A DNA stretch of 64,000 nucleotides from contig CP070761.1 of the NCBI GenBank assembly GCA_020348985.1, forward strand, positions 1,856,905 through 1,920,904, written 5' to 3'. The notes beneath the pieces were generated by a model. The model was not told the DNA's origin, made no database searches, and saw nothing but the letters and a program-made list of their open reading frames with translations. This DNA comes from Candidatus Thorarchaeota archaeon. GTDB taxonomy: Archaea > Asgardarchaeota > Thorarchaeia > Thorarchaeales > Thorarchaeaceae. The position numbers and the translations under genes were made by a program. Below are positions 7,686-15,552 of the stretch, in pieces (position 1 is the first letter of the stretch; the number at the start of each line of letters is the position of its first letter).

Positions 7686-7760
7686 GATGTTCAGCTAGTA
7701 CAACTCTTTAAAAGCATCAGTTGGGGAAAATTGCACGTAACGGTAGCACCGGTGGATGTT

Positions 7761-8417
7761 ATGGGCTTCCTGAGCGGTAGAAAGAAGGCAGACAATGAAC
7801 GTCGAATCCTAGAGGTCAAAGGCACTATGAATGCTCTGACCCTTCGAATGAGAAGACTTGATACTCGAATAGATACGGAGCAGCATTCTGCAAAGAAGGC
7901 GATATCACGTGGAGACCGCGAACAAGCGAAAGCTCATCTGCGATTGGTTGTAGACTTAGAGAACAGACGCGGACGATACCATCAGCAGTTTCTGACTCTG
8001 GAGACAGCATTACTGAACATAGAGGAAGCAAAAGATCAGGCTGAGGTTCTGAGAGCCTTTACGGTGGCTAATGAAGCCTTGACTGAAGCTCGTTCGATGT
8101 TGAGTCCTGCCGAAATCCAGATTCAGTTGGACCGCCTGGAGGAGTCATTTGAGCACATTTCGATTGCAGGTGACTTGCTTTCTGAGAGTCTGGGGGATAC
8201 AAGTTCCGCAGAAACAGATGAGAGAGTAGAAAGACAACTTGATGCAATGGAAGCCGAGATTCTCCTGGAGAAAGAAGGCATGCTGCCACCGCTTGGTGCT
8301 GAAGGTGAAGCGACCAGTGAGGAAGTTAGTGCGTCTGAAGAGAAGCGCGTAGACGAGATGCTTGCTGATTTGGAAAGAGAGGCCAAGGAAGAACGAGAAA
8401 AAGAGGCACAGAGCTAG
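7761..8417 (+). CDS. ESCRT-III / Snf7-family protein (Vps20/32/60-like)
   Basis: Amphipathic N-terminus MGFLSGRKK, basic helical hairpin (AKKAISRGDREQAKAHLR), LETALLNIEEA, and an acidic C-half with DERVERQLDAMEAE and LPP. Start refined to ATG 7761. Confidence 0.8.
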   Translation: MGFLSGRKKADNERRILEVKGTMNALTLRMRRLDTRIDTEQHSAKKAISRGDREQAKAHLRLVVDLENRRGRYHQQFLTLETALLNIEEAKDQAEVLRAFTVANEALTEARSMLSPAEIQIQLDRLEESFEHISIAGDLLSESLGDTSSAETDERVERQLDAMEAEILLEKEGMLPPLGAEGEATSEEVSASEEKRVDEMLADLEREAKEEREKEAQS

Positions 8418-11667: not shown

Positions 11668-12861
11668 GTGACTGAGCTAAAGAGACCGGTTCTACCATTT
11701 TCTGCAGTTGTTGCCCTAGGTCGGCTCAAGCTAGCACTGATACTCAACGGGGTGAATCCGAGGATTGGTGGTGTTCTGGTTTCTGGACCGAAGGGTACTG
11801 GCAAGACTACTGCAGTAAGAGCCCTGGCAGATTTACTACCCGAAGTTGAGGTCGTGGAGAAATGCAGGTTTGGGTGCAGTCCAAGTGATGAGATATTCCT
11901 ATGCGCAGAGTGTATCGCGAGGGTCAATGGTGGGGAGGAACTCGCCTCCTTCAAACGCAAGATGCGAGTTGTCAACTTACCCCTGAGTACTACCGAAGAC
12001 AGGCTCATTGGTTCACTTGACATTGAGAGAGTCTTGCAGGATGGAATTCAGGCATTGAAACCCGGGATTCTTGCCGAAGCCCATCAAAACGTTCTGTATG
12101 TTGACGAGGTCAACCTACTCCCAGATCATCTTGTCGATGACTTGCTTGACGCGGCCGCAACCAAGATCAACGTAATCGAGCGAGAGGGGATCTCGATCTC
12201 GCATCCATCAGATTTTGTATTAATCGGTACAATGAATCCAGAAGAAGGTGAGCTAAGACCACAGCTACTCGACAGGTTTCCGCTTCATGTTAGTGTTGGG
12301 ACCGGGCTTTCAATCGAAGAGCGAATGGAGCTAGTGAAACGGAATCTTTCCTTCGAAGAAGACCCTGATGACTTCCGTGAGAAATGGCTTGAGGCTCAAG
12401 ACGCGCTTCGAGAGAGAATTGTCAACGCGCGTAGTCTGCTGAGAGAAGTCAATCTTTCGGAATCCAAGCTGAGAGCTGTAGCAATGGCCTGCGATGCCCT
12501 TGAGGTTGATGGTGTACGGCCTGATATCATCATTAGCAAGACTGCTATTACGAATGCCGCTCTTGAGGGTCGAACCGAAGTCAATCTTGAGGACTTGAAG
12601 ATAGCGTCTCAGCTAGCCTTGAGTCACCGGACGAGGAGAGGTGGGCTTCTCGAACCTCCCTCATCTGAGGACATTGAAGCGGCCATAACGAAAGCAGAGA
12701 CCATAACGAGAAAAGATGATCGAAGAAAGTCTCCCACGGAAGTCCCTGACGACGAAAAAGAGAAGAATGGCCAGCGGTTCAGCGGGGGTCGCTTTGGGCG
12801 ACAAGATGAATACGCCCAATGGGGAACTGAGGAAGGCAAAAAAAAACTCCGGAGAAAGTAA
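11668..12861 (+). CDS. ChlI/BchI-like chelatase AAA+ ATPase (N-terminal part of a probable frameshifted chlD-like gene)
   Basis: PFSAVV, GPKGTGKT, TEDRLIGSLD, LYVDEVNLL and GTMNPEEGELRPQLLDRF. Start refined to GTG 11668. Confidence 0.92.
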   Translation: MTELKRPVLPFSAVVALGRLKLALILNGVNPRIGGVLVSGPKGTGKTTAVRALADLLPEVEVVEKCRFGCSPSDEIFLCAECIARVNGGEELASFKRKMRVVNLPLSTTEDRLIGSLDIERVLQDGIQALKPGILAEAHQNVLYVDEVNLLPDHLVDDLLDAAATKINVIEREGISISHPSDFVLIGTMNPEEGELRPQLLDRFPLHVSVGTGLSIEERMELVKRNLSFEEDPDDFREKWLEAQDALRERIVNARSLLREVNLSESKLRAVAMACDALEVDGVRPDIIISKTAITNAALEGRTEVNLEDLKIASQLALSHRTRRGGLLEPPSSEDIEAAITKAETITRKDDRRKSPTEVPDDEKEKNGQRFSGGRFGRQDEYAQWGTEEGKKKLRRK

Positions 12862-12884
12862 GGACCGCCAGAGGTAGTCCTTTC
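12828..12884 (+). other. Putative programmed -1 frameshift / slippage cassette
   Basis: A9 run at 12838-12846 (GGC AAA AAA AAA CTC). The -1 frame opens after TGA 12828-12830 and stays open into the vWA ORF. A hairpin follows (AAGGAC 12860-12865 with GTCCTT 12877-12882). Confidence 0.7.
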
Positions 12885-12905
12885 AAAATCACCGCGTGTA
12901 CGATA

Positions 12906-14339
12906 ATGCTGATCACAGCACTGTCTTTCTTCGCATGGCTCTACTTCAGCCCAATCAATCTTCTCCTCGGTCTTCCTATTGGAGTCTTTCCGCCACTGCC
13001 AGTTTTCATCATCAATATCATTCTCTACGCACCGCTAATCTTCTATATTATCCGCTATTGGATGAGACTCCTGGCGAAGCGTCAGTCAGGTTCCGCCGCA
13101 GGGATCGACACAGTCGAACCTACCAGAGGAGTTCCAGAGCCCGGAGATGAATGGGGAAGAGCTACAAGACCCTATAGTCCGGAGGATCCTGCGAGGATTC
13201 CAGGTTCGAAATCCGAGATACGCGAAAGTCCGTATGCTCTTGACTCGGGCTTCTTTGTCAAGACACCAGATCTCGAAACGGGTGAGGAGCTCTTTGATGC
13301 TGACGAGCTCAGAGCTGGCGCAATGATGCGGTCTAGGGTCTCTTCAGGAGGATGGGTGGACAAGAGAGTAGCCTCACGGGCAGTGGGTTCCCTAAAGGCA
13401 TCGGACACTCCCAAACATGGACGACCATTCAGGTCCAGAATGCCATCTGGCGAGGTTGGCAGCATAGACATCCCCTCCACTGTGATGGCGGCGATAGTCA
13501 GGTCTGGTCGCATTCCTAGGGGTGAGAGAATCAGGATTCAACCACAAGATATCCGGGAGAAAGTCTTCAGCGGCAGAACTCCACTCACAGTCATCTTGGT
13601 CATAGATGTTAGCCTTTCAATGAAAGACAGCATGCCAGAAGTAAGGAAGGTCATCAAACGCATTGAGCGTGAAACCCGAGGGTCAAAGGATCGAATCGGC
13701 CTCATTGCATTCAAGGACAGTGGTGCAATTGAGGTTCAAGCTCCAACCTCGAATTGGAACAAGCTATACCGTGGTCTTTCGAGGCTGCGAATTTCAGGAC
13801 TCACTCCTCTTGCAGAAGGTATCATGAAAGCGCTTGAGACAATCAGAAGGGAAAGGATGAGAAGTCTAGATGTGGAGCCCTTGGTCGTTGTCATTTCGGA
13901 TTTTGCCCCCAACATACCACTAGCACAATCTGTTGGACCAGGCAATGCACAGTACACACCGGTCAGAGACCTGGTCAAGGCGGCGAGGGTTCTGCGCAAA
14001 AAGGACACACGCCTCGTTACGATAAATGTAGACAAAGAACAGGTCAAGTGGACTCGGTTCTTGAACCGGCCTTATCATGATGCTCTCGAACTTGGTACCA
14101 TGCTGAGAATGATGAAAGAAGGCTACAAGAGCGTAATCGAGACCATTCTGGCAGTCCCGGAGTTTCGGAAATCCTTCGGATCATATTTGGTTGCCACTGC
14201 TGGTGGAGGTAGAACATTCCTTTCCAGTGAGGTTTTGGGTTTTGACTCTGTCCTAGGTGAGTTTCTTGCTGCTAGCAGAAAGCGAGTAAAGATTGATGCA
14301 GAAACTCTGGACAAGGCAGAGGCCTACATTTTGAAGTAA
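12906..14339 (+). CDS. ChlD-like vWA domain protein with N-terminal TM segments (-1 frame continuation of the AAA+ ORF)
   Basis: IDIPSTVMAA and DIREKVF (ChlD linker), MIDAS DVSLS, GLTPLA and VISD, plus two hydrophobic N-terminal segments. Confidence 0.85.
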   Translation: MLITALSFFAWLYFSPINLLLGLPIGVFPPLPVFIINIILYAPLIFYIIRYWMRLLAKRQSGSAAGIDTVEPTRGVPEPGDEWGRATRPYSPEDPARIPGSKSEIRESPYALDSGFFVKTPDLETGEELFDADELRAGAMMRSRVSSGGWVDKRVASRAVGSLKASDTPKHGRPFRSRMPSGEVGSIDIPSTVMAAIVRSGRIPRGERIRIQPQDIREKVFSGRTPLTVILVIDVSLSMKDSMPEVRKVIKRIERETRGSKDRIGLIAFKDSGAIEVQAPTSNWNKLYRGLSRLRISGLTPLAEGIMKALETIRRERMRSLDVEPLVVVISDFAPNIPLAQSVGPGNAQYTPVRDLVKAARVLRKKDTRLVTINVDKEQVKWTRFLNRPYHDALELGTMLRMMKEGYKSVIETILAVPEFRKSFGSYLVATAGGGRTFLSSEVLGFDSVLGEFLAASRKRVKIDAETLDKAEAYILK

Positions 14340-14526: not shown

Positions 14527-15552
14527 ATGAGGCCTGTAGCCATGCTTCCCGGGAAGGTTCCACCAGCGATACTTGAAAGGCTCGTCTTCACGCGACTAGG
14601 ACAAGTAGATGACTCCGTGATTCTAGGACCTGAGTTGGGTGAGGATGCCTCTCTGATTCGGATAGGAGGTCGTGTGCTGGTGGCGTCAACGGACCCCATC
14701 ACAGGATCGATTGAAGACATTGGGTGGCTCGCTGTGCACATCAATGCAAACGATGTTGCAACATTTGGCGTTGTACCACGATGGTTCCTGGTGTCAATCA
14801 TGCTTCCGATATACTCCACCTCCGAACACATTGAACGCATCATGAATCAGATTCACGGAGCGGCATTTCAACTAGGCGTTGCTGTTGCCGGGGGACACAC
14901 TGAAGTCACTGAGGGCATCGATCGGCCAATAGTGGCAGGCTTCATGTTGGGCGAAACTGAAGAAGGGAGATATGTGACTTCCCGTGGCGCCAAGGCGGGG
15001 GATTCGATTATAGTTACCAAGTCAATAGCTCTGGAGGGGACTTCTATACTTGCTTCAGAATGTCACTCGAGACTAGTGAGTTCACTTGGAGAAGATGTGT
15101 TGAAGGAAGCACGATCTATGCGTGATCTCATTAGCGTGGTGAAGGAAGGAGTGTCTGCCTTCGAGACCGGACATTTGACAGCTATGCATGATCCTACAGA
15201 GGGAGGTATAGCAGGAGGTTTGCACGAACTGTGCGATGCGAGCGGGGTCGGGTTTGAGGTAGAAATGGATCGGATTCCATTAGTCGAACCTACACGACTA
15301 ATCTGTGATGAGCTGAGGATTAATCCCCTAGAACTCATCAGCAGTGGATGCATGGTTATCACGTGCAATTCTGAGTTTGACAATGAAGTAGTAGGAGCCA
15401 TTAATTCAAAAGGCATCAAGGCAACCATAATTGGAACGGTTTTGGCGGACAGTGAAGATCGCAGACTGGTTTCCAAGTCAGGTTCAGAGCCTCTAGCAAG
15501 ACCAGAAACTGATGCCCTCTGGAATGCACTCAAACAGACTAAAGATTCATGA
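14527..15552 (+). CDS. AIR synthase-related protein (HypE/PurM/ThiL superfamily)
   Basis: GEDA, STDPIT, NANDVA, GGHTE and MHDPTEGG motifs. Confidence 0.88.
   Translation: MRPVAMLPGKVPPAILERLVFTRLGQVDDSVILGPELGEDASLIRIGGRVLVASTDPITGSIEDIGWLAVHINANDVATFGVVPRWFLVSIMLPIYSTSEHIERIMNQIHGAAFQLGVAVAGGHTEVTEGIDRPIVAGFMLGETEEGRYVTSRGAKAGDSIIVTKSIALEGTSILASECHSRLVSSLGEDVLKEARSMRDLISVVKEGVSAFETGHLTAMHDPTEGGIAGGLHELCDASGVGFEVEMDRIPLVEPTRLICDELRINPLELISSGCMVITCNSEFDNEVVGAINSKGIKATIIGTVLADSEDRRLVSKSGSEPLARPETDALWNALKQTKDS

Follow-up and report, generated by a model that had tools for sequence, protein, structure and literature searches.

A conserved poly-A frame break in a chlD-type gene of Thorarchaeota suggests soluble and membrane-anchored forms of one AAA+ ATPase

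Organization of the locus

The window analysed here is a stretch of 64,000 nucleotides (nt) from the genome of a Candidatus Thorarchaeota archaeon (assembly GCA_020348985.1, contig CP070761.1, positions 1,856,905 to 1,920,904 of the forward strand). Positions given below are those of the window unless genome coordinates are indicated. At 11668–14339, on the plus strand, the window carries a chlD-type gene that is divided between two overlapping reading frames, the first encoding a ChlI/BchI-like AAA+ ATPase and the second a von Willebrand factor A (vWA) domain. The two frames meet at a run of nine adenines.

The first open reading frame (ORF1, the zero frame) extends from GTG at 11668 to TAA at 12859–12861 and encodes a short product of 397 amino acids (aa). 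Orthologues align an ATG, GTG or TTG codon at the position of this GTG, which supports it as the start. A Walker A motif, GPKGTGKT, lies at 11785–11808, and a Walker B motif is also legible in the ORF1 sequence. The 3' end reads GGC AAA AAA AAA CTC CGG AGA AAG TAA. The run (A9) occupies 12838–12846 of the assembled sequence, is read in the zero frame as AAA AAA AAA, includes the heptamer A_AAA_AAA and is followed 12 nt further 3' by the end of ORF1, a spacing that is alike in most orthologues. The -1 frame is closed by TGA at 12828–12830, 8 nt 5' of the run, and is thereafter open from 12831 to 14339. Because this TGA lies upstream and the TAA of ORF1 downstream, a change of frame is confined to 12831–12858, where the A-run is the sole slippery sequence. 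A -1 shift on the run, or one A added in the RNA, leads to a predicted product of 890 aa with the junction ..EEGKKKTPEK.., in which threonine (ACT) is the first residue after the shift. The C-terminal part of this long form is read from 12846 to 14339 (497 codons and a stop). A preliminary description of the locus, made from the sequence alone, had reported the end of ORF1, the -1-frame TGA, the open frame beyond it, the 12831–12858 overlap and the A9, all of which are verified here; its product sizes of about 397 and 890 aa and its junction peptide are reproduced by translation.

The two frames correspond to the two halves of a known protein type. ORF1 matches the BchI-ChlI model TIGR02030 (E 4.6e-115) and contains the Pfam domains AAA_5, AAA_lid_2 and Mg_chelatase, while the -1 ORF matches TIGR02031 and contains VWA_2 and VWA. 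On the fused 'putative cobaltochelatase' model TIGR02442 the halves are colinear, with ORF1 aligning to positions 2–353 and the -1 ORF to positions 401–622. Solved ChlI and BchI structures match ORF1 with E values of 1e-82 to 1e-97 (2.5e-97 for ChlI, 6l8d), and the best sequence match of the vWA domain in the Protein Data Bank (PDB) is BchD (2x31_A). The vWA domain spans 13548–14030 and has an intact metal ion-dependent adhesion site (MIDAS), the DxSxS motif of which (D259, S261 and S263 of P0002; 13605–13619) falls in columns that are invariant in the family alignment. Membership of the MoxR-type AAA+ group was rejected, as AAA_3 (PF07726) and bpMoxR score 17–21 bits, below their cut-offs (27), against 384–456 bits for ChlI-type models. 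A search of the genome for a second ChlI-like gene found none. Foldseek comparison of the -1 product returned generic vWA domains only and was uninformative on the client.

Domain architecture of the long product

The -1 product was modelled with AlphaFold2 from an alignment of 32 sequences, giving a mean predicted local distance difference test score (pLDDT) of 70. Between the AAA+ and vWA parts, at 12879–13079, hydropathy and the model concur on two long hydrophobic helices (P0002 residues 17–45 and 56–83; pLDDT 80–87) that are flanked by basic residues and are predicted to form a membrane hairpin. The first of these helices begins 5' of an ATG at 12906. C-terminal to the helices the model shows some 110 disordered residues, then the vWA domain, and last a helical extension of roughly 100 residues that is predicted with confidence. 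This C-terminal extension (14034–14336; pLDDT ~85–93) lies past the end of the ChlD/TIGR02442 model and gave no Pfam or NCBIfam match. Both the hairpin and the extension are conserved in the family. Application of the positive-inside rule for membrane topology to the predicted helices would place the AAA+ and vWA parts both on the cytoplasmic side.

The best 150 library representatives include 29 in-frame relatives of at least 750 aa, and 21 of these have segments resembling transmembrane (TM) helices at the same place, at about residues 390–450. They point to a broad and apparently uncharacterised clade of in-frame AAA+–TM hairpin–vWA proteins of 800–980 aa (P0007–P0048; L032–L034). Among the genomes searched, the frameshifted form seems from its sequence distribution to be confined to relatives within the family Thorarchaeaceae.

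Rarity of the A-run in the genome

The genome is a single contig of 3,157,342 bp with 47.8% GC and an estimated completeness of 86%, and it strongly avoids long A/T homopolymers. Runs of at least nine A or T number three, where composition leads to an expectation of about 12.5 A-runs per strand or about 25 over both strands, and there are none of at least ten. The slip site is the only A/T run of at least nine inside the coding DNA of the 3.16-Mb genome. The other two, at genome coordinates 113688–113696 and 654107–654115, adjoin gene starts and are ruled out as further recoding sites, as both are intergenic. A single one of the 175 Lys-Lys-Lys triplets in long ORFs is spelled AAAAAAAAA, and AAA is the minor Lys codon (33% of Lys codons in the genome). 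The presence of the A-run at the frame break is not due to chance.

The same arrangement would be seen if the true sequence had A10, that is, if an ordinary in-frame fusion had lost one A through a homopolymer error in sequencing or assembly, and a single contig at this completeness is possibly a long-read assembly. Of the 55 A/T runs of at least seven genome-wide, however, the slip site alone coincides with a frame break separating two long ORFs. That none of the other 54 does so argues against a general homopolymer-indel problem in the assembly.

Conservation of the A-run and the frame break

Of the 60 other genomes searched in the same family, 52 yielded orthologues, and these represent 15 of its 16 genera. 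Forty-seven junctions were extracted from these genomes, which are kin and include many metagenome bins. A tract of eight to eleven A (A8–A11) is present at every one of the 47 junctions, in one case interrupted. At 41 loci a -1 shift is needed to join the two frames; the tract is A9 at 31 of these, A10 at seven and A11 at two, and at one it is interrupted (AAAAAGAAA, with an A7 14 nt downstream). Three further loci, all with A10, are in frame, and the last three need +1, one having A8 and two having A9 with 1 nt missing just 5' of the run. The preliminary description had proposed orthologues as the place to check its reading, the contrary outcome being orthologues that are always in frame or always separate genes lacking an A-run; with the tract at all 47 junctions and the -1 break at 41, the family shows neither.

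The -1 break is shared by both genomes of the same genus as the one studied. On a tree of the ORF1 protein the -1 state occurs in every major clade, and the in-frame and +1 states are lone tips among -1 kin, with six changes of frame relation and nine changes of tract length over 45 tips. Clades with a lengthened tract, A10 in four genomes and A11 in two, retain the requirement for -1, which indicates that the out-of-frame relation itself is maintained. The in-frame orthologues (G031, G013 and G067) encode proteins of 893–898 aa that read GKKKTP.. across the junction, identical to the predicted trans-frame junction. A JGI metagenome contig placed near the A10/-1 clade has A11, is in frame and encodes an 880-aa product (P0003). 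Relatives from the same phylum but outside the family are all in frame (643–900 aa), one of them spelling the homologous KKK as AAG AAG AAA. A related-locus search of the contig collection returned a single distant locus, from Thermoplasmata, and a search for contigs encoding the 477-aa ORF of the window returned none.

These data also bear on the possibility of a homopolymer error. In three relatives and two JGI contigs the two halves are in frame, the tract having one A more than in the nearest -1 kin, as would be expected if an A were sometimes lost from the consensus. Against this, the -1 requirement recurs in 41 of 47 relatives that were assembled independently, those of the A10 and A11 clades included, and the ORF1 stop 12 nt past the run is conserved. 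We therefore regard an artefactual break at this locus as very improbable.

A heritable change of tract length at the DNA level could in principle switch lineages or subpopulations between short-only and long-only states, with no recoding at all. Tract lengths from 8 to 11, the flips at lone tips counted above and a genome that otherwise purges long A/T runs, as expected of mutable tracts, are what such phase variation would produce. A free switch, however, would mix the three frames, whereas the -1 state is found in 87% of the consensus genomes and on all deep branches, and in-frame states never found a clade. As a replacement for recoding, phase variation is thus judged unlikely. It is nevertheless compatible with recoding, and the two may coexist. 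Where tract length differs at lone tips, the cause may be true polymorphism or an error in the consensus.

Individual junctions show further variation around the tract. In L044 (G077) and L050 (G069) the A9 is kept and one base is lost immediately 5' of it, in L050 from a G-run, so that +1 is needed; the loss may be genuine or may stem from an error in the consensus. L015 (G025) and L007 (G011) have a second A7 (CC-A AAA AAA TAA) 14 nt past the main tract, which ends at the ORF1 stop. In L015, where the main tract is the interrupted AAAAAGAAA, the sequence suggests that the slip site may have moved to this A7.

Coding upstream of any start codon

Family members share, in the -1 frame past the run, the reading T-P-x-K-I/V-R-x-P-R-G-x-P-I-K-G-T-I-C-A-I-M. 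Counted from the run, the first ATG stands at +59, and an earlier ATG, GTG or TTG is absent from most loci. For the 15 codons that precede this ATG, the -1 frame has a ratio of nonsynonymous to synonymous differences (pN/pS) of 0.20, with pS at 0.77, whereas the two other frames give 1.6 and 2.1. The spelling of the A-tract is kept although nearby synonymous sites are near saturation.

The conserved ATG bears on the simplest alternative, in which the locus consists of two separate genes, an ATPase that ends with the TAA at 12861 and a TM-vWA protein that starts at ATG 12906, perhaps by translational coupling or reinitiation, the A-run being merely a Lys-Lys-Lys codon series. AAA+ and vWA pairs encoded by separate genes are common, as in MoxR-vWA and CobS-CobT, and this counts for such an arrangement. 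The ATG at +59 is kept in most orthologues, and the protein library lists a 477-aa product (P0005), as predicted by its gene caller. Several features count against two genes. The 15–20 codons before the ATG lack a start codon at most loci and show purifying selection in the -1 frame, the first hydrophobic helix has already begun before 12906, and no motif resembling a Shine–Dalgarno (SD) sequence precedes this ATG. The A9 spelling, moreover, persists at a pS of 0.77 and with AAA as a minor codon, and fused in-frame relatives exist. Since the -1 frame codes upstream of any start and the in-frame genes read GKKKTP.. through the junction, two independently translated genes are ruled against, and we assign this arrangement a very small probability.

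Proposed decoding and its mechanism

It is highly probable that the locus is a frameshifted chlD-type gene (fs-chlD) from which a 397-aa soluble ATPase and an 890-aa membrane-anchored ATPase-vWA form are made. The preliminary description had likewise read the locus as one recoded gene, and the colinear halves on TIGR02442, the shared -1 break and the junction of the in-frame relatives support it. By standard decoding, ribosomes would stop four codons past the A9 and yield the soluble ChlI-like AAA+ ATPase. A fraction of expression events would instead enter the -1 frame on the A-run, either because tRNA-Lys slips one base back on A_AAA_AAA or because RNA polymerase inserts one extra A in the transcript. 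The resulting long form would contain the same AAA+ module followed by the two-helix membrane hairpin, the disordered linker, the vWA domain with its MIDAS, and the helical tail. If the parallel with ChlI-ChlD and CobS-CobT motors holds, an AAA+ ring would assemble from short and long forms together and be tethered to the membrane via the long subunits.

The sequence of the tract is compatible with both routes. Every phase variant of the tract contains A_AAA_AAA in the zero frame, so that a ribosomal -1 shift would always be possible. A length-dependent process such as transcriptional slippage fits at least as well, because 9–11 A are kept though the heptamer needs seven, the genome purges such runs elsewhere and no conserved downstream structure or SD-like element accompanies the tract. 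Transcriptional slippage could also give the short form from the in-frame variants, via loss of one A. On these data ribosomal slippage, transcriptional slippage or both may be at work.

Two candidate stimulators had been pointed out in the preliminary description, a hairpin 3' of the run and the purine-rich GAGGAAGG 5' of it. Both are present in this sequence; neither is conserved. The hairpin (12860–12882, core AAGGAC/GUCCUU) has a predicted stability of -15.1 kcal/mol and a folding z of -2.76, is particular to this sequence and may add to ribosomal shifting at this locus. RNAalifold found no consensus pairs over 31 junctions, and single-sequence folds vary from locus to locus, so a downstream hairpin or pseudoknot was rejected as a conserved stimulator. 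GAGGAAGG is not kept in orthologues and reflects Glu/Asp-Gly coding, and its role as an SD-like stimulator was likewise rejected.

Several observations weigh against the proposed frameshift. Six of the 47 relatives depart from the -1 state, being in frame or needing +1, and tract length varies in nature or in the assemblies. Because the genomes compared are related to one another, their counts overstate independence. Translation of an independent TM-vWA protein could begin at the conserved ATG at +59, and the 31 junctions contain no conserved stimulatory RNA structure or SD-like element. A more specific version of the proposal is that A9–A11 forms a family-wide programmed transcriptional-slippage site for the archaeal RNA polymerase, fixing the ratio of soluble to tethered subunits in an orphan chelatase-like motor that would act at the Asgard cell membrane on a non-tetrapyrrole client. 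This version is put forward tentatively, as a possibility that we rate as rather doubtful.

Relation to known systems

Frameshifting on a poly-A tract is already described for genes of this type. Twenty-three 'magnesium chelatase' genes with a poly-A -1 shift have been catalogued, with carriers in Pseudomonas, Burkholderia, Delftia, Herpetosiphon, Methanocaldococcus and Methanococcus, and reporters in E. coli gave 10–63% frameshifting, higher with a longer A-run (Antonov et al., 2013; PMC3711429). The conserved A_AAA_AAR was noted by Atkins et al. (2016; PMC5009743), and Kuznetsov et al. (2022; PMC9227772) have since reported fs-chlD genes from all major phyla, among them genes in genomes that lack chlH or cobN. 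The preliminary description had referred to poly-A frameshifting of prokaryotic chlD-like genes, and these three papers, archaeal cases included, bear it out. A literature search found no paper linking Asgard archaea with chlD recoding. The recoding device is thus known for chlD-type genes; the present case is set apart by its conservation throughout an Asgard family and by the putative membrane anchor.

The Thorarchaeota gene resembles published fs-chlD genes in having a ChlI-like AAA+ ORF followed by the vWA half of ChlD in the -1 frame, and a conserved poly-A tract in the short overlap. In-frame fused homologues exist in both cases, and some published carriers also lack chlH and cobN. The locus has four features of the group, namely the ChlI-like upstream ORF, the -1 ORF with vWA and MIDAS, an A-tract conserved beyond coding need, and fused homologues, which comprise the three orthologues of 893–898 aa, the 880-aa P0003 and many representatives of at least 750 aa. 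It differs in size, the published pairs having about 1000 nt each and a canonical product of ~640 aa against 890 aa for the long product here. The membrane hairpin and the C-terminal extension of ~100 aa would be a further difference, as is the Asgard lineage. A stimulatory RNA structure 3' of the slip site is usual in the group though not obligatory; here the local hairpin of this one sequence has no conserved counterpart among the orthologues.

The relation to the class I chelatase motors ChlI-ChlD/BchI-BchD and CobS-CobT is similarly mixed. The AAA+ part is close to ChlI/BchI, and the MIDAS-intact vWA domain is nearest to BchD in the PDB. In contrast to canonical ChlD/BchD, which have a soluble acidic Pro-rich linker and about 600–700 aa, the 890-aa long form has hydrophobic helices at this position, forming the predicted membrane hairpin. 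A further difference is that the N-terminal AAA+ module of the long form is identical to the short subunit and so has full Walker A and B motifs. A three-subunit class I chelatase (ChlIDH or CobNST) requires an encoded large subunit, and a search for CobN/ChlH (PF02514) gave no match in any of the 61 family genomes, the studied one included, whereas five control genomes gave matches. Neither this absence nor the hairpin in the linker figures in the preliminary description.

A cellular archaeal gene that is likewise divided into two ORFs is fucA1 of Saccharolobus solfataricus, where an A-rich heptamer is the site of the -1 shift that links them (PMC8211752; PMC8037382). Only the full-length fucA1 product is thought to be functional, whereas both products are expected to be in use here. 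The tract of 9–11 A also extends beyond the heptamer, so that transcriptional slippage is possible in addition.

Genomic context and significance

The neighbouring genes are not tetrapyrrole genes; they encode a Na/Ca exchanger, threonine synthase, a HypE/ThiL/SelD-like member of the AIR-synthase family and SurE. The AIR-synthase-family gene lies at 14527–15552 on the plus strand, after a gap of 188 nt from the chlD-like gene, and scores below all equivalog cut-offs. A JGI contig (L038) keeps the gene order of Na/Ca exchanger, ThrC (minus strand), chlD-like gene, AIRS and SurE (minus strand).

Genes of eukaryotic signature were also noted. A Snf7 (ESCRT-III) gene lies in the window at 7731–8417 on the plus strand, and EAP30 (ESCRT-II-like) and gelsolin-domain genes are found at genome coordinates 2969725–2970123, 1009140–1009661 and 2888302–2888487. 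Judged by their sequences, these genes fit an Asgard archaeon. Searches of the genome for VPS28 and profilin were silent, and equally so in controls, so that they carry no taxonomic information.

To our knowledge, archaeal recoding has been documented experimentally for very few cellular genes, and a site conserved over at least 15 genera of one Asgard family gives a case that is clean and open to test. Automatic gene prediction splits or truncates this gene, as in the recorded 477-aa product, so that annotations of these genomes misdescribe it. If the transcriptional-slippage reading were true, the locus would represent programmed transcriptional slippage of a cellular gene in Archaea, and a new role for an I/D motor. 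By either route, the shift would not only add a domain but also set the location of a ChlI-type ATPase, which would be free in the cytoplasm as the short form or, in the long form, anchored at the membrane together with a MIDAS adaptor. An I/D motor in genomes that lack the large chelatase subunit points to a so far unrecognised function of this ancient motor.

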